From: Catajapyx aquilonaris
Taxonomy: Eukaryota
DNA length: 36,672 bases
Reading direction: 5' to 3'
NCBI GenBank assembly: GCA_000934665.2
Contig: JYFJ02003886.1
Coordinates: 1 to 36,672, forward strand
Position numbers and translations under genes: made by a program. Below the pieces are notes generated by a model. It was not told where the DNA came from, made no database searches, and saw nothing but the letters and a program-made list of their open reading frames with translations. Positions 3,176-27,430 of this stretch are shown piece after piece. Every line of letters starts with the position of its first letter. The first letter of the stretch is position 1.

Positions 3176-3193
3176 GGGGGGGGGGGGGGGGGN
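3176..3193. other. Poly-G run ending in an ambiguous base (possible assembly join)
   Basis: 17 G followed by n at 3193. Confidence 0.8.
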
Positions 3194-6716: not shown

Positions 6717-6879
6717 CCGGTGCCTTGATGAGGCCTGCACCTGTACCCCATCATGGAACCAAGTCACACTCGGTTTCGGATCGGCTTGCACGCGGCATTC
6801 GAATAGGAGCCGCTTTCCGTCATCTTCTTGCCGTATAGATGGCTTCTTCGCAAACGTGGGGGCCGTGCCGTCGATTTGT
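6717..6879 (-). CDS. bt: Projectin exon, Ig2 N-half (QIDGTAPTFAKKPSIRQEDDGKRLLFECRVQADPKPSVTWFHDGVQVQASSRHR)
   Basis: Acceptor CCCCTCTTTAG|A, donor CGG|GTATGT; 163 nt, phase 2 in and phase 0 out; I-set Ig motif matching projectin. Confidence 0.96.
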
Positions 6880-11000: not shown

Positions 11001-12324
11001 ATAACTAATGTCAGCTCCATGGTCAGCTCAAAGAGCCTTAATAAATTACTATTTTCTCAGAGTTTATTTTTGCACTGCCCTTTTCAAGTTTTGAACCGTG
11101 CCGTCGCGTCGGAGATAAGTCAGAAATTTGGAGAGGCATGAAAGACAAGTGGACAAGGCTGTCGTCGGCAACGGATAATTGACTATGAATCTCTTATATT
11201 TGCTCTGGTCTGCGTTTCCAGTTGGCTCATCCGCACTATCTTTTTGGCACTCCGTCCATTTCGCAACCCGGGCGCAAATTGGCCGAGGTATTATTTATCT
11301 GCTGCTGCTTTCTTCACGCTTGCCCAGATACTGCACTTATAGACTCATAATGCACCGTTGTGTCGAGCAGGTCTGTGTTTATCCTTAAATAGAATCAGAG
11401 GTGGCTTCCATTACTGAGTGAATGATGTGATCTGTCACTCTTCACTCACAATATCCCCTACTGCATTGCTGACATTTTACATATACTGTACGCTGCGCCT
11501 ACTGTAATAGTTAGGATGCCTCAAAAGTGTCCAACAGTATCCTCTATCCCTAGCCTGGCATGTCTAGGTACTGTACTTACAGCGAAGAAGAAAATAATAT
11601 CGACAGAGTGAGTTATTCTGAATCATATTATGTCAAGTTACTTTACTAAAACAAGTAGGATATGTGTGGGTTAGATCTATTAAAAGATGGCAATGGGTGT
11701 GGCTGTATTGCATGAGAGAGCCCAATAACAATCACTATCTAATTTTTTTTTAAGTACACGAGAATATTTTAAAAATTACACCTCCACAATTTTGAATCTT
11801 CCTTATTCCCCAACAGATCAGAGGCAATAAAGTAATCAAAAGAGTACTTGAAGCTTCAGTAGCTTGTAAACAGTATATCACAGCCATTCTGTCATTAAGT
11901 CCATGACCTGAAGAGGCCATCCGGTTAGGTCCACTGTTGCGTGGCAAAATTCCAGTGAAAGTTTGAGTGGTACCACTAGAACTTATTGTATCAACCAATC
12001 GTAAATGGAGGTTGCAATCAGGTACAATGGTAACGGCGAATTTTCCGATAGATTAGGCAGACAATACACTCCAAATCGATCCACCTAAACACGGACTAAA
12101 TGCCTCTCCTCAAAGTTTCTTCTCATAATTGGTCAAATAAGTGAAGCTCCTACTCCGACGTTCTAGTCGTTCCGAGCAGGTAACTCCGTCCCAGTGTGTG
12201 TCTACAATTTCAAAGAGCACCTTACGACAGCACTTGGTTATGCGGAGAACATGATAAGCATAAAGGTCACGTCACGTCAGTGTCCACGAAAGAATTAAAG
12301 TCCTAATGAGCAGTCAGTGCTTAC

Positions 12325-12338
12325 TTTGCAGGTGGCAT
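12325..12338 (-). CDS. bt: Putative alternative first coding exon of projectin (M-P-P-A-K), splicing to the Ig2 exon
   Basis: Minus strand GAG ATG CCA CCT GCA AA|GTAAGC. The phase-2 donor matches the acceptor at 6879. There is an in-frame TAG upstream of the ATG and promoter-like sequence about 400 bp upstream. Confidence 0.6.
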
Positions 12339-12689
12339 CTCTAGATCCTCTTCTCTAGAACTCTATTTTCGATGCAAACCACGGTCACATTCTGCACCTT
12401 TTTCGAATTACAACCACATGACGGAAATCCCGCGACTCGCACAAAAAAACCACTTTTTTTTAAAAAAAATAATAAGAATTCAAATCAAAAAATCCCCGGA
12501 TCACTCGCGCACTAACCCGATCACGAAATCACACCGCGGTTGACCCGAACGCGATTTGTTTTTATCCCGTCACTCCACACCGACCGACCGACCGATCACC
12601 GATGATTGACAAGAGAAAAAGGATCGCGACGGAATAACCTTAACACTCCAGAGGAGACCCCTGAAGATCTGGAGCAGAACTCAAAGGTG

Positions 12690-13035
12690 CTCTGGGTTTA
12701 AACTTAGCTCTAGCTGGCCCTTTTTATGGCTCCCCCACCCCCTTGTCTTCCACCAGTCCCCTTTTTCTCCCTAGTCCATTGCGGTCGGTGGACACAGCTT
12801 CAACCACAGCTCCTTCACACCCGCTCTCGTTAAGACCGAGTGCACAGCCGATCGTTCGCCGATGACTTCGACTCGAATTATGGGGAAGGTACCCGCGAGT
12901 GACACAGCTGCTGCACCCGGACTTGAGTGGTTACCTAAGTCTTCTGCAAAGGGTGGGGGATTTATGAAGTGACATGTGGTATTGTACTACTAAGATTTAT
13001 CGAGGCAGCCCCTGGGGTGCCTCTATTTATAGATT
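12690..13035 (-). promoter_or_regulatory. Putative internal muscle promoter of projectin
   Basis: TATA-like/CArG-like CCATAAAAAGG at 12729-12719; perfect MEF2 consensus CTATTTATAG at 13023-13032; E-box CAGCTG at 12905-12910; four CACAGC copies (12793, 12805, 12843, 12903); CpG-rich UTR-like sequence downstream. Confidence 0.5.
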
Positions 13036-14516
13036 GAGTCCCGGTAAATAATGGGCAGAGGCAGCAGTGGAGCAGCGAGAGATAAATTTCATGCAGCTAA
13101 AAAAAAATGTTTTATTTTTTATTTTTATATCAGCCAGCTTGTGAATACCCTCGGTGCGCAATCAAATGGCACGGGTGAATCTCACCAAAGTGCGTCAAAA
13201 CAGGCTGGGGATGCGAATTAAATAGGAACGAAGTATCATATTGCTAATCTTATGACATTATACTTATAAAATGTGAATAGTGCTTCAATCAGATTTTCGC
13301 AATTACCATAGGGCAGGCAAGTGATTCCATCGTAAAGATTCATATATGAAGCATTCTTTCTATCCCTCGACATTCAATAAAAATATGGGGTTTACTTCAA
13401 GGGTGGCCAATGATTGCCCAATTCTCCTAATATGAACACATTAACAACAGCAGCAGCAGTTTTTGACCCGGAATTTTCCATTTTAGGATCATCAGTGACG
13501 TAATGACAATGTGTTACGAAACAACAACGTGTTCAGAACTTTTACGACAAAGGAGGAGAGGTATCTCCCTTTAAAAAGAGATTAGAGGAATGGTGCCTGA
13601 CAGTCTCTATCTCAGCACTCTCGCATCTCTTCAAGTATTCGGGTCTTGCATGGTATTTAGCAACAAACTGCGCCCTTCGCGCACCAAGTGTTTCCAAATA
13701 ATGCACGTTTAAAAAAAGGGTTGTTGTGCATGTGAAAGTGTAAAGAGAAGGATACTGTGCATCAGAGTCATTATATCGCTAAGCTGCCATAATATTCCTG
13801 AGCAGACGCAGTCCGGCGCAAGCAAGAAGCGTTCCAAGAAAGCAAACAGTTTTGCAGTAAGTAAACCAGTTAAGAAGCCGAACAAACTTTGCAGCTGCTA
13901 AAGATATTTTTGTAGCATAAAGTCGGTTTCCTACGGAATAAAACAGTTGGCTTGGAATCGTTGCAAGGAAAAGAATGCGCGAGTCTGCACTGCTTCAAGT
14001 CTTTAACGTCTTGGCAGGGTGTTTACAGCCGCCATCATTTCGGAGTTTGGCATGTGCTTCTACTGCTCTAATTACGAGGCAGATTCTTGCGCAAACACTA
14101 CATGCCATCCGAAGAACTGTGTCGCCTATATCTCAGATACACTCGCAAATAAACATTTGCAGTGGTGGGGGAAGATTTGGCATGCTTACCAGGCGAGTGA
14201 CCCGCCTGGAGAAAATCCGACAATCTTAGCTCAAGTGTTTATCATTAGCTTGTCTGTGGTCCAAAATACCAAACGCCTCTTGCCCTTAGCGGAAACGAAT
14301 TTCCGTGCCCAGGTGAGAAACCCGTCGCAGCTCGGCTGACTACCCGGACTAGTTCGAGTTTTTCACTTTGTGAAAAAAATTAACTTACATTTAGCATCAT
14401 GATGCAATCATATACCAAGAGGTGCCCTGAACACCTTATCACATTATTGTGACGAACAGTTTAACGTTACAATTTAACTATCACATTAACACAGAAATAT
14501 GTAATAATTAACTTAC

Positions 14517-14538
14517 TTCTCTCGCGGTTCGTCGACAG
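14517..14538 (-). CDS. bt: Projectin 22-nt microexon encoding the Ig1-Ig2 linker (P)VDEPRE(K)
   Basis: Minus strand reads TTTTGATTTCAG|CTGTCGACGAACCGCGAGAGAA|GTAAGT. It enters in phase 1 and leaves in phase 2, exactly bridging the flanking exons. The product PVDEPREK-QIDG matches the insect linker PADEPKEK-QIDG. Confidence 0.93.
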
Positions 14539-16086: not shown

Positions 16087-16399
16087 GACTAAAGTTGAGG
16101 TTGATGGAAGCCGCAACATCGCCGTGCTTGTTCTTAGCCTTAACCTTGTAAAGCCCAGCATCAGTTTCGACGACGTCGTCCAACTCCAGGACGACGAGGA
16201 ACTTGTTGGGTCCTATCTCAGTGGTCCGGAACACAGTGCGTCGGTCCTCCTTGAGCTGCGTGTCGCCCCGGAACCAGCAGATTTCCGGTTTAGGCGAAGA
16301 CAGCATCTGGCACTCGAAGATGAGGCGATTGCCATCATCTTCCTGTCGAAGTTGCGGCTTCTGGGTCACACTAGGGGCGAAGTCCTCGGCGGCCCCCAT
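16087..16399 (-). CDS. bt: Projectin/twitchin first coding exon (Ig1 domain), MGAAEDFAPSVTQKPQLRQEDDGNRLIFECQ...ASINLNFS
   Basis: Translation closely resembles the insect projectin N-terminus (MGVAEDFAPSF..KPQL..LELDDVVETDAGLYKVKAKNK.G.V.ASINLNF). ATG at 16399; donor C|GTAAGT at 16087/16086 (phase 1). A likely acceptor TTTCTTTTCGCACAG| lies at 16536/16535, so 16535-16400 would be 5'UTR. Confidence 0.96.
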
Positions 16400-18426
16400 G
16401 GCTCCAGCCGCCAGGACCTGTCTCTCCGATCAGGTCCTGTCTCTTGCCTCCTCTTTCAGCACACCTCTCTGTACCTTCCCCTCCTCGGTGCGTGGTCACC
16501 GGCCGGAAAAAATGCCCAAGCTATCCTATGCAGATCTGTGCGAAAAGAAATCAATGTCAGTACGCAGAATGTTTTCAAATAACTTATGTGGTGCTTTCAC
16601 AGCAAAACCGCTAGCCCGGCATACCAGTTTTACACACTTATCATCCACGCAATCAACGGTCTAAGTGTCAAATAGATATTTTTCACACCATATGCCTACT
16701 TCCTATAATAGTGACGGGTAGGAAGTATATATGAAAAGACCACGTGTCCCAGATTTAAATATCGGAAAATGCACATCACAAGTCTTGAAATTATTCTTGC
16801 TGCAAATAATTATTGTCATATGTATATTGGGGGTCAAAATATCATCTAATATTGCCTAATAGAAACTACCGCAATGAAAACATGAGACATGGCATTCTCC
16901 AACTTGAGCCAGCCATAGAAGAGATCCTGTTTATCACCCTGACTTGACTTCATTCACTGTGTACTGGGAAAACAAGCGCATTAATATATTTTGTAACTTT
17001 GGAAAACACGGTGTCCAGATTCCTCATTATTTTGGGTAGTTTCCTATTTTTCTCCCTGGACATAACTCTTACAATGCACACAAGATGCTGATACTGCGCC
17101 CTTGTCCCGCTCGAAGGCTCCCTCGGGCTTCCATTTGCAAGCAACAGCCCATCCATGACCTTCAGACTCGCGTTTCAGTTGGTACTTCCTTGGCGCAAAA
17201 TAGGTACACATTATGCAATAACATTATGAATGAAGATTTTTTCCCCCCACCGCCTTGATAGAAACTAGTGCAGAGAACGGTCTCCTCCAGACTTCGCATG
17301 AATCCTAACGCATAATGGATCGTGATTCCGGTTGTCATTATAAGATGTGACTGAGTTGCTGCAACTGCCAGACATGAACATACAGTACAACACACGTATG
17401 TAGACTGTTTCTACTGTTGTGGAGCGACGCTATATGAACGATCGAACATCGAGTCGATTTGCTCCTGGCGACTAGCTAACCTATGCGCCTCTCTTGTTCG
17501 CCACGCTGCATAGTTACAAGGGGCGATCGGCATCGCGGCCTACCCCTCGCAAGTATGCTACGCGTTGAACAATTGCGTCGCTTGAGTCATCTGTGTGCCA
17601 GGATGAAGAGAGTGAACTGTATCAATATCCTCCACAGGCAATGGGGGAAAAAAAAAAGTGTGAAGTGTGGGGAGATTAGGGAAACACAAGAAAAAGAGCT
17701 GCTCTCATGTCAAAATACCGGATACTTCTGTCATCAATAATAACCTAACAGTAGGCTACTTTCTCATTAAGCAAGTCCATAAACCGACGGACGGTTCTGC
17801 TATAGTCCCGCTTACAAAATTGCAAAAAATTACATTTCGATAACACAACACTTTTCATTAAATATGTCGAGGAAATAACCACATGCACTATTATTCCCGA
17901 TCGCAGTTGTACAGAGTATTATAGAACATGGCAACAGGATATAACAGGAACATAATTTTTTCAGTGAGCTATACCACTATAATGACTATATAAACCTTAA
18001 AACCAGTTAATATGAATATTCTGCTGAAGTTATCTAAGGGGAATTTGGTTGATGCGGAAAGCAGTCCCTAACCTTAGATATGTTCAACACCTCAATTGTA
18101 ATGTACACTGTCCAGCAATTTATAAGTACTGGAAGAAGTGTTGTATACATGAGACCTTACAATACGTAACTCAACTGTAAAGTTCTGGCACAATTCCAGC
18201 CGATTTGGCTACTTATGTGTTGAGCATTCAGTCTACAGATCACATCGACAGGCTGTCAACAAGTCACTTTCAACTTTAAAACTAAGCAATGAAGCCAGGT
18301 TAGATTCGCATCTGGCAAGACTTTATGAGTCAGTCCTGTCAAGAGTGTATTTAAATGACGCGCAAGTGCAGATGGCAACACACGTGGCAAATAAAAATAA
18401 ATAATATACAGGATGGAGAAGCAAAC

Positions 18427-18640: not shown

Positions 18641-20611
18641 AAAATTGTGTCATCGTATTATTGCAACAATTGAAAACACCCTGCCACTACACGTGAACAT
18701 GTCCTAACTTTCAAGCCATCTCCGGGACTTTCCAACAATAATGATTCTAGCGTACTGAACTATGGCTATAGAAAGGGGAATATATTATAAGTTCACTACT
18801 TTTACGTTAATCTCTGTATTCATGGAGCAATCCTCTAATAATTGTCTCTTTCTCAATTCGTGCCACAATGTCGTCCTGTGGTCAGCGTGGGCCTAAAGCC
18901 TTTCTACAATAGGTGGCAATAGACTATTTTGTGGCCAATTTTTAAAACCTTTTGTGAGCCTTAACTCCATTGCTTTTTTAGCTGCAATTTTCCTCAATTA
19001 TAGAAATTCGCATTATCTACCTCAAGAAAGATGTGGCAAGAAAACGTATTCATATGTATCCAGCAAATTGTGCTTAGCAACTGTCATTCCCATAACACCA
19101 CGGAAATAGCCAATTCTTGGAGAACATCAGTACTAAAAGTTTATCCACTTGTGACAGAGACACGTCATATAAAGTAGTTCATACAGGTTTACCACCCTAT
19201 AACACCATTACCTAAGTTGCTTTTAACAAGTTTAAAATTAAGTCACATCAGACAGAGCTATTTCTAATGTTGGCATGCACTTCGCTTTAATTTCAACACG
19301 TCTGCTACTACATACCCTAACTCCATGACTCTTCCGCCGATAAACAAGCTTCGTTCTGCGCAATTGGTCTATTTACTGCCCGGAATAATTCGTATTACAG
19401 TATCTCTTACACTTGGAACCCACAGAGGCAAAATGATTTATGATGCCGTAAGTAAAGCAGTGATCCCAGAATAACTTGGGCCAACTGCTGACTGCATTAA
19501 GGAATTCCGGGTTTAAATATTCCAAAGGCCTGTGTACTACTCGCCCCACTTCAAAATGCGGGCTCCCTTTTTCCTGATTTTATCCCCGCAGCCATTGCTG
19601 GCAAAGGCTCTCGAAAGAAAATAAGAAGAAAAAACAGCAGCGTTAAACTATGAAGGTGAGGGCCAAATGGGTCACACCAGGAAGTATGCTGGTGACGGAG
19701 AGAGATGGGGAAAGACAGCGGGCACTTTGGTCATTTGGACCGGTCGCGTGATTGTTATTGTCAGGGGGCAAGTTCTATAAAGTCAGCCAAAGTCAGGGTC
19801 TCGGTGTACGTGGGGATCTCCAAGAGCTCCTGTCATTCCTGCTGTTAAAATTAGAACGGCCTGATCACCCGACTAAAAATAAGGCCTCATAAATATTTCA
19901 AGTGAACAGACAAGCTTGGCACTGATGAGCTCACAAACGTTGGCAAATCCTAGAAGACATCCTAACTAATGAGACAAGTTTTTCCCACGAATTATTATTT
20001 CCAACGTGATTACGGATCGTTTCAAATCAACAAGAGTGCTGAGTGCTGATGTTTACAAATGACTTAATTCCTCTTGTACGGCAGTACACTGATTAAAACT
20101 GCGACACAAACTTTAAATATATAAGATAAGCTTGGAAAATATTTGTTCATTCACGCATGACTGGCCCATTACTACAGTGCAGTGCCAAAGCCTTTTGTTT
20201 ACTTCAAAAGAGTTACGCATGCTCTACAGTGCAAATCAAAGAGAACAGCAAGCAACTCGTCATTCTGGCGCGGAAGCAGAGAAACAACACGGCATGACGT
20301 GTTTATTTCATAAACGTATAAATAGAACCGGCCTAGAGTCCTTGCTGGTGGTCCAAGACGGTTCACCAAAGGGTACTGCGGTCAGAATCACAGGAACTTT
20401 GTCTTCAATAACTCAATTTTAAAATCTCACTAAAATACAGCATAATAATCCGAATTTATTGCAAAACAGTAGCATGACACAGTGATGATAATCGCCTGAG
20501 GAAAATGTTTTGCCCTGTCATTGCACCGACACAATGTCAATTATACTGTAATTTTTGAACACCTTGTTAGGTAATCATTCAAGTGAGATTCCTTTTTTAA
20601 TTGCCATTTAA

Positions 20612-20886
20612 TAATAATAATAATAATAATAATGGATACCCCGTGATAGGCCCCCTTGGGCCTCTTAGGGGATCATCTTTTAAATACCGACTTTAATCAT
20701 GGCCTGCGCTGTGATGGATTTTGACTGTGGGAGGAAACGGGAGAACCCCGAGAAAACCCACGCGAACACGGAGAGAACCCATCAAAACTCTATCCACATA
20801 AGTATCCTCCGTCCGACCCGGGGATCGAACTCGGGACCTTAGAGGTGGAAGGCTGCGGCGCTAACCACTCCGCCACCGTGTCGCCC
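20612..20886 (-). mobile_element. tRNA-derived SINE with V-domain-like core and (ATT)n tail
   Basis: A box TGGCGGAGTGG (20875-20865), B box GTTCGATCC (20830-20822), core GTTCTCTCCGTGTTCGCGTGGGTTTTCTCGGGGTTCTCCCGTTTCCTCCCACAGTC, 3' stem-loop, and 18-bp TSD TTTTTAATTGCCATTTAA (20594-20611 and 20887-20904). Confidence 0.92.
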
Positions 20887-22689
20887 TTTTTAATTGCCAT
20901 TTAAATATAATATAGAATAAAAACTAATGCCATTTTGAATTCTCAAAATGAATTGAGCTCTTACTCATACCAGTAAAGCTTTTACTTCTTCAATTTATAT
21001 ATTGGTCCAATTCTTGACAATTGCTTCATAATCGTTGTTCACTCGTGACAGATTATTAGATTCCACTGAAATTACTATGATACAGTTTCTTTAACAATCT
21101 GAAGCAGGATAATTCAGCTTTCTATCCTGAATGCATCAAAATCTAATAAATTTAATAAACTGTGCAATATGTGCAGTCCGATTCCTTCTATTGTTTCAGG
21201 CAGATTGGGTCAGATGGACACTGGAATGGGACATGAAATGAGATATGACCCGTTACCCTTAAAAAAGTAGTTTAACGGATAATTCCATTTTAATGGCTCT
21301 CCGGTCTGGGTCTGACGCCGTGGCGTACACATCAAAGGAGAAAGCGGTTGGGCATGCAATGCAAGTGCCTATATCCAACAGGTTTGTAGACATCCACAGT
21401 ATACAACGCTAATATCCACATAATCACAATTCACTAACGGCAGGTGAATCTCTTGACCCACGTCACTACTTTGCTTGGAGATATCCACTAATCCACTCGG
21501 AGGATGCACTTGGACGACTTACTCGAGGCGATATCCAGTTAATGTCAGAGAGGCCAGGTCCTCTTTGGCAGATACCATGCTTGGACTCCAACTACTGGAT
21601 CCAGCAACGTTACGGTTTTTACAGGCCACCCCTCTGCCATCCAACTATTTCCATCTCCGCTTAGATTCAACGCCCCGATATCAGAAATAGCTACCATCGC
21701 TTCCCAAACTTCCCTATCGCCCATTTTTATCTTGGCACACGCTCTGTTGGCAATAATGCAGCTTGTCGGAAAAGCGAGGAAAGTAGAGCCCGGTTCCCAC
21801 GGAAGGCGAAATTACTACAGCCGACTTACAAAAATCACCTTATTATTTCTTTTTAAAAAATAACAACAACCGATTAGTACGTCGCGATGATGCTTACAGT
21901 GCTCCAGCTATCAATCCGTAAACATTGCAATGATCATCACTTATTAAGATGTCTACATAAAAATCACTGGTTTGGATTGTTTGTGACCCAATTGTGCAAC
22001 ATTCCGGATTGCGCCTTGGGAAACCGCCAGAATTTTTAGGCACTATTTCCTTGTTATTTCTATAGCTTCCTCGAAGAAAAACGAGGTCAACGAAGTCGGC
22101 ATAATTGCAACACACCTATAACTGCAGCGTCCAACTAGTGTGCGTGCGCATACAGTAGAAGTCTATGCCCCTATTTTGTATATAGAAAAACAAGTAGAAT
22201 GTGCGGGGTTATTTCTTGCTCCATGAAAGGGTTTCCAGCTCTGTCGCGCCTTCAAATCACCCGTCATTTATCCGGAGATAAAGATCTTGGCAGGCAGGGT
22301 TTAGGAATCCAAGTTCTCAGTTTCCAGCGTGTTGCGTCTTCTATTAGTTAGGAAGTGAGTAATACCATTTCTTATAGTCACTCAGCTTGGGCATTCCTTT
22401 CATCCACCATGGAGGCAAAAGATTAAAATAAACCTCGAAGGGAGGATGTGCCCGACTTAATTTTTTCTGCGCCAAAATAGCAGTGTTCCTGGCAGATTTT
22501 CTTACTTCACACAGTCCGTCACCGGTCATCTGCGTATTAGAACCAACGTCACTTTATTTTTAAAAGTCGCTCAAGGTCCTTCTCCCCGCACTGTTAAGAC
22601 AGTCGCTCATCATTCAAACGCGAATCCTGATGAGCAACACGACACTCCTGATTGGTTGTAGATGGTGACGTCGATGTGCACTGGTATTC

Positions 22690-27059: not shown

Positions 27060-27430
27060 CCCCCTCAACTCTACCCACCCACTCTGCACACCACCCCCAC
27101 CCTTCCGCTTTGTTCAGCTGCCCATCTAAAATTAGTCCAGTTGGGGGCCTCTGAAGCCATCTGATCCTCACCCCCACCCAACCACCCCCTTCCCCGTGAT
27201 GTCACATCTTTGCTATGCACCAAACTCTCCGGAAGGCACTATTTTCAAAGACGAATAAATATAGGCTGCGGGGGGGAGGCAGGCAACGTGGGGGTTGGTG
27301 GGGAAGTGGGAGACTGTGTGGGTGGAGGAGTCAGGGGTAGCCTATGTGCAAAATTCTCTCCGACTTACACCAGTTCAAGCTTGCACTGGTAAACAGCTGT
27401 TTTATAACACGCTCCTCTGCTTCCTATTTT
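27060..27430. promoter_or_regulatory. Candidate muscle cis-regulatory module upstream of projectin
   Basis: MEF2 consensus CTAAAATTAG at 27126-27135; E-boxes CAGCTG at 27115 and 27394; several CACCC boxes; a C-rich tract followed by a G-rich tract. Confidence 0.35.

Follow-up and report, generated by a model that had tools for sequence, protein, structure and literature searches.

A possible internal promoter and alternative first exon in the projectin gene of Catajapyx aquilonaris

Internal promoters that lead to N-terminally shortened giant proteins are known from several muscle genes. Vertebrate titin with its isoform Cronos, Drosophila sallimus/kettin/zormin, and Unc-89/obscurin are such cases, and the shortened proteins are muscle-type-specific. 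In Drosophila, several muscle genes have MEF2-dependent enhancers in their first introns. For Obscurin, passages of PMC9886281 describe a shorter larval isoform that lacks N-terminal domains.

For projectin, differences in isoform size between muscle types are documented in the consulted part of PMC2120353. An earlier note on the present DNA had likewise stated that the isoforms differ between muscle types. Published work, as far as its consulted passages go, attributes the isoform differences to alternative splicing of the PEVK region. In the literature searched, including passages of PMC9886281, PMC3835035, and PMC9886278, there is no mention of a projectin lacking the first immunoglobulin domain (Ig1) or of promoter choice at the N-terminus. 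The Ig1-less isoform type is already modelled in RefSeq with the same exon boundary as in the locus described below, but in mites.

The 5' end of projectin and a CpG-rich patch in its intron

The window, which is the whole 36,672-nt stretch of DNA from Catajapyx aquilonaris that was analyzed, carries the 5' end of the projectin (bent/twitchin) gene on its minus strand (Table 1). An N-terminal order of Ig1, linker, and Ig2, with the conserved junction ..NLNFSP.DEP..K QIDG.APTF, was found. The translation of the Ig1 exon is 80-82% identical to the N-termini of psyllid, planthopper, ant, and beetle projectin/twitchin models, and the first exon of Ig2 shows 72-78% identity to the best named insect models. 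The linker ..DEPREK QIDG is also present in insect models and in four metagenome loci (L006, L007, L010, and L013). The base A at 6879 completes the Lys codon (AA+A) and is followed by QIDG; the Ig2 exon then reads QIDGTAPTFAKKPSIRQEDDG... to 6717. The intron between the microexon and the Ig2 exon is 7637 nt long, in line with the 7.6 kb given in the earlier note. The window contains a single N, at position 3193.

Table 1. Positions of the features in the window, ordered along the minus strand. A slash marks a splice junction.
Feature	Position	Strand	Description
First coding exon, coding part (Ig1)	16087..16399	-	ATG 16399-16397; donor GTC/GTAAGT, phase 1
22-nt microexon, Ig1-Ig2 linker	14517..14538	-	..PVDEPRE plus nucleotides 1 and 2 of a Lys codon; donor GAA/GTAAGT (ends GAGAA/GTAAGT), phase 2
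MEF2 consensus match CTATAAATAG	13023..13032	-	YTAWWWWTAR, exact
Second in-phase ATG/donor pair	12935..12975	-	ATG 12975; donor TAG/GTAACC after 12935
E-box CAGCTG	12905..12910	-	CANNTG at chance frequency
CpG-rich patch	12000..12900	.	55 CpG in 900 nt; 6.1 per 100 nt (window average 2.8)
"TATA/CArG-like" element of the earlier note, CCATAAAAAGG	12719..12729	-	7 A/T between CC and GG
Two upstream ATGs in the proposed leader	12385..12419	-	Read from the sequence
Candidate coding end of the alternative first exon	12325..12338	-	ATG CCA CCT GCA AA, encoding M P P A plus 2 nt of a Lys codon
Candidate splice donor GTAAGC	12319..12324	-	Context AAA/GTAAGC; 6/9 donor-consensus matches
Ig2 first exon	6717..6879	-	Acceptor ctctttag/A; encodes (K)QIDGTAPTFAKKPSIRQEDDGKRLLFEC...; donor CGG/GTATGT

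Several observations concern the sequence upstream of this intron. On the minus strand, the ORF at 32223-32438 matches the C-terminal SH3 domain of KIN17 (PF25092, E 9.5e-12). The neighboring upstream gene is thus a same-strand KIN17 homologue, and its exon bounds the upstream space of projectin. A second CpG-rich patch is present on the minus strand at 17201-17800, with CpG observed/expected ratios of 1.14 and 1.02. It holds an initiator-type TCAGTC (17354), with a GTAAGA donor near 17072, and an acceptor-like cacag/A is found at 16537, ~138 nt 5' of the Ig1 ATG. This second patch, together with the acceptor at 16537, may represent the canonical projectin promoter with its non-coding first exon. 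Five matches to YTAWWWWTAR are clustered within 1.7 kb (19232-20910), 5' of the Ig1 exon, and another strict MEF2 match, CTAAAATTAG, lies at 27126-27135.

Inside the 7637-nt intron, the CpG density at ~12000-12900 is the highest in the 36.7-kb window, with the Ig1 coding exon at a comparable level. The CpG observed/expected ratio is 1.48 at 12201-12600 and 1.21 at 12401-12800, compared with 0.65 for the whole window, and these two ratios are the highest among the 30 CpG-richest windows listed. The best 600-nt window (start at 12351) contains 40 CpG, which exceeds the count for the Ig1 coding exon, against a mean of 16.8 and a standard deviation of 8.9. Local ratios over 1 in a CpG-depleted background give the region a CpG-island-like appearance. 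The CpG density is the unusual feature of this region, unlike the pairing of ATG and donor treated below. We infer that the patch, like promoters, escapes methylation in the germline. The earlier note had described about 350 nt of CpG-rich, UTR-like sequence here; the CpG richness holds, but it is not that of a UTR only, as the patch reaches ~300 nt past the candidate donor.

The patch at ~12000-12900 is tentatively read here as an internal alternative promoter with a first exon for an Ig1-less projectin, and we regard this as a possible, not an established, function. Minus-strand transcription would begin somewhere between ~13000 and ~12650, the transcripts would take the first consensus GTAAG donor downstream (12325/12324), and splicing would join 12325 to 6879, the acceptor of the Ig2 exon. 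With the ATG at 12338 as start codon, the product would be M-P-P-A-K-QIDG..., a projectin that would be without Ig1 and the linker (~112 residues) but the same in all other respects. Muscle specificity would come from the MEF2/TATA-type element at 13032-13023.

It is rather unlikely, in our estimation, that the intron is simply neutral, with the ATG, donor, MEF2-like site, and E-box all due to chance and the patch being either a compositional fluctuation or a young insertion that retains its CpG, such as a non-autonomous repeat. Part of the CpG excess is indeed accounted for by a tetranucleotide repeat of four copies, the (CCGA/TCGG)x4 microsatellite at 12579-12595, which supplies a few of the CpGs. 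The top rank of the patch for CpG in the window, however, argues against a neutral origin. So does the search for the marks of an insertion: there is no second copy of the patch within the window, it is not bordered by convincing terminal repeats and a target-site duplication, and none of the five ORFs in 11750-13994 has a Pfam match or a transposon protein domain.

A CpG-rich patch is inherently strandless, and this one continues beyond the candidate donor. Both properties would suit a promoter or first exon of some other transcript, namely a non-coding RNA, an antisense RNA from the plus strand, or an RNA that uses a different donor without in-frame joining to Ig2. The several weak donors and the other in-phase ATG/donor pair of the region (Table 1) would suit it as well. 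Nevertheless, such a transcript is very improbable: the plus strand contains neither TATA nor initiator motifs in 11900-13200, no Rfam family was found in the whole window at gathering scores, no tRNA was found in a search of the window, and the ORFs around the patch are without Pfam matches as described above. That no protein or RNA family, tRNA, or repeat within the window accounts for the patch also favors the promoter reading.

Start codon, splice donor, and motifs

The string ATG CCA CCT GCA AA/GTAAGC is present as the earlier note had it, with the ATG at 12338-12336 and the end of the exon at 12325. The donor is in phase 2, and the exon ends in AA like the microexon. When joined to 6879, it rebuilds the Lys codon ahead of QIDG, which also agrees with the earlier note. 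An in-frame TAG is found nine codons 5' of the ATG. The donor-consensus score of the candidate is 6/9, compared with 7/9 for the microexon and Ig2a donors. In favor of the promoter reading are this score and the lack of any other GT[AG]AG site on the minus strand between 13000 and 12325.

The ATG-plus-donor pairing itself is statistically worthless. On the minus strand of the intron, two of the 14 GT[AG]AG sites have an in-phase ATG without an intervening stop. When donor-like sites with at least 6/9 consensus matches are counted, 8 of 31 are accompanied by an in-phase ATG, versus 6.9 +/- 2.6 in simulated introns of the same dinucleotide composition (300 runs). At least one ATG/donor pair appeared in all 300 simulated introns. 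The pairing is therefore at chance level, which is what a neutral intron would show. The ease with which such pairs arise is illustrated by the second pair (Table 1). It lies ~600 nt from the candidate and ~55 nt 3' of the TATA/MEF2 element, and it could likewise join the Ig2 exon in frame.

The proposed leader contains short upstream reading frames. The ATG at 12419-12417 opens a three-codon uORF that ends with TAA at 12410-12408, and the ATG at 12390-12388 is directly followed by TGA. If the MEF2 site serves as a TATA box, the leader would be ~670 nt long and would contain four upstream ATGs. With either leader, the upstream ATGs count against the promoter reading.

The perfect MEF2 site reported by the earlier note is indeed an exact match: CTATAAATAG fits YTAWWWWTAR. 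This strict MEF2/TATA match, 690 nt 5' of the candidate, speaks for the promoter reading. A TATAWAWR match at 13031 falls within CTATAAATAG, and it is the sole one near the candidate besides a match at 13129 in an A/T run. The pattern YTAWWWWTAR is found 17 times in the window, versus 5.1 expected from shuffles, and only two of these matches have the strict C..G form. The E-box CAGCTG (12910-12905) is present as noted earlier; it is without weight because CANNTG occurs 6.5 times per kb on the minus strand. Both the number of MEF2-pattern matches and the frequency of E-boxes speak for the neutral intron.

The "TATA/CArG-like" element was only partly borne out. The sequence CCATAAAAAGG is present at ~12725, but it fits neither CC(W)6GG nor TATAWAWR. 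It was rejected as a CArG box, having seven A/T and not being among the four CCWWWWWWGG matches of the window, and it was rejected as a canonical TATA box. No TCAKTY initiator is present on either strand in 11900-13200. The missing initiator and the absence of a true CArG or TATA at 12725 also suit a neutral intron. Taken as a group, the sequence motifs around the candidate carry little weight.

The missing core-promoter motifs suit an enhancer better than a promoter. The patch, if unmethylated, could act with its MEF2 site and E-box as an intronic muscle enhancer that drives or modulates the upstream projectin promoter. No coding transcript would begin in the patch in that case, and the ATG and donor would be coincidental. 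The strict MEF2 match and the CAGCTG E-box are ~120 nt apart, and the CpG density is suggestive of protected, regulatory DNA. However, the CpG-dense part does not include the MEF2 site, which sits at the upstream margin of the patch. A single MEF2 site and a single E-box are weak given their background frequency, and nothing links the patch to the canonical promoter. An enhancer function is considered unlikely.

Projectin N-termini in other species

The 54-residue Ig2 exon gave 43 matches among proteins of 96-2000 aa, none of them over 78% identical and none from C. aquilonaris itself. In 15 of the 43, an odd leader runs straight into RQIDG. These leaders were rejected as alternative exons and are more plausibly ORFs called across the acceptor AG/A. 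A search of 1.84-billion representatives returned mostly multi-Ig proteins (19 of the 150 listed were inspected).

Long projectin/twitchin models were more informative. The 93 models comprise 38 found among proteins of 4181-13304 aa and 55 members of ten of their clusters. In 76 of them, Ig1 is followed by the conserved junction. Another 14 are non-orthologs, partial models, models with far-internal starts, or, in the case of one nematode, unassignable. The remaining three lack Ig1; their short leaders meet the common sequence exactly at the Q of QIDG, and all are from mites. They are Brevipalpus obovatus X2 (XP_074598807.1, leader MG), Panonychus citri X2 (XP_053200689.1, leader MERQLKTS), and P. 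citri X3 (XP_053200690.1, leader MASR). In both species, an Ig1-containing X1 is present alongside the Ig1-less forms. As a precedent at this exon boundary, the mite models argue for the promoter reading and against a neutral intron.

Among insects, no model starting Ig1-less at QIDG was found in the sample, which covers mosquitoes, Lepidoptera, a mealybug, a few beetles, a planthopper, and muscid flies, each cluster being represented by a single model or by no more than 15 of its members. The absence of this N-terminus from all insect models examined is in favor of the neutral intron. Models of a barnacle (Pollicipes XP_037070962.1, MPASMEDDQ-ADG..), a second barnacle, a tick, and a pseudoscorpion begin just before the homologous Ig domain; these models may be truncated. 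There is no convincing similarity among the five leaders MPPAK, MG, MASR, MERQLKTS, and the barnacle MPAS....

Insect RefSeq sets do contain isoforms with far-internal starts. The join to canonical projectin falls at residue 850 in Anopheles arabiensis X8 (XP_040159960.1) and at residue 1387 in Haematobia irritans X20 (XP_075147134.1). Internal promoters in the projectin gene are therefore not exotic. In addition, Anopheles twitchin models (P0231, P0284, P0286, P0293, and P0294) carry two linkers before QIDG, ..SPADEPVEK and ..SQKVERKER / ..SPEKVERKER, suggesting alternative linker microexons in the same intron.

Scanning metagenomes with the Ig2-exon alignment detected 19 loci with 51-83% protein identity. 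The comparison by blastn of the whole 7637-nt intron with these loci revealed no meaningful similarity. It gave only 12 short matches, none over 46 nt and the best with E 2.7e-5, and most of them sit in the A/T-rich runs 12443-12484 and 13098-13130. No MPPAK-like exon was found in the 16 upstream flanks scanned, and microexon equivalents were found in four loci. Such negatives have little force because the loci are only 51-83% identical in protein. In the orthologous intron of five related loci (L006:1805-2214, L007:714-1147, L008, L009, and L010), a long open frame (..PKVYYRIHKCPPPV..HLNIILPS..) recurs. This shared frame has the look of a dispersed repeat and not of an exon.

The mite models also raise the idea of an ancient internal promoter before the QIDG exon, common to mites and insects, of which the window would be the first insect case. 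We consider such an ancient origin improbable.

Functional meaning and comparison with known systems

The earlier note had placed the projectin N-terminus at or near the Z-disc and proposed that the loss of Ig1 could change the anchoring there. This location is disputed by DNA-PAINT with nanobodies in Drosophila flight muscle; the consulted part of that work puts Proj-Ig5-8, and with it the N-terminus, ~100 nm from the Z-disc, which weakens the proposed effect on anchoring. More plausibly, the loss of Ig1 (~4 nm) would alter the overlap with the C-terminus of Sallimus. The functional stakes are modest, since only one Ig is lost and the Z-disc premise is doubtful.

If the candidate exon is real, insect muscle could produce projectin without Ig1. 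Together with the mite models, it would then point to a conserved second way to vary the end of projectin that projects into the I-band. If the promoter is ancient, arthropod muscles could choose between projectin with and without the N-terminal Ig, possibly under MEF2 control, and the choice would tune the overlap of the projectin N-terminus and the Sallimus C-terminus at the border of the I- and A-bands.

This locus has in common with the MEF2-dependent intronic enhancers of muscle genes that a MEF2 consensus and an E-box occupy one of the early introns of a sarcomeric gene. Such enhancers differ in requiring no ATG or donor, and the site here is a predicted one. The isoforms of the titin Cronos, sallimus, and obscurin type lose large functional regions, whereas only one Ig, ~100 residues, would be lost here. 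The far-internal-start isoforms of A. arabiensis (X8) and H. irritans (X20) belong to the same gene family as the candidate, and their alternative N-termini imply internal promoters, but they lose far more than Ig1. The mite X2/X3 models come from chelicerates and are computed gene models, their leaders are unrelated to MPPAK, and the isoform of the window is hypothetical. In these models, nevertheless, a leader of two, eight, or four residues replaces Ig1 and the linker, at the boundary that corresponds to 6879/6878 in the window.
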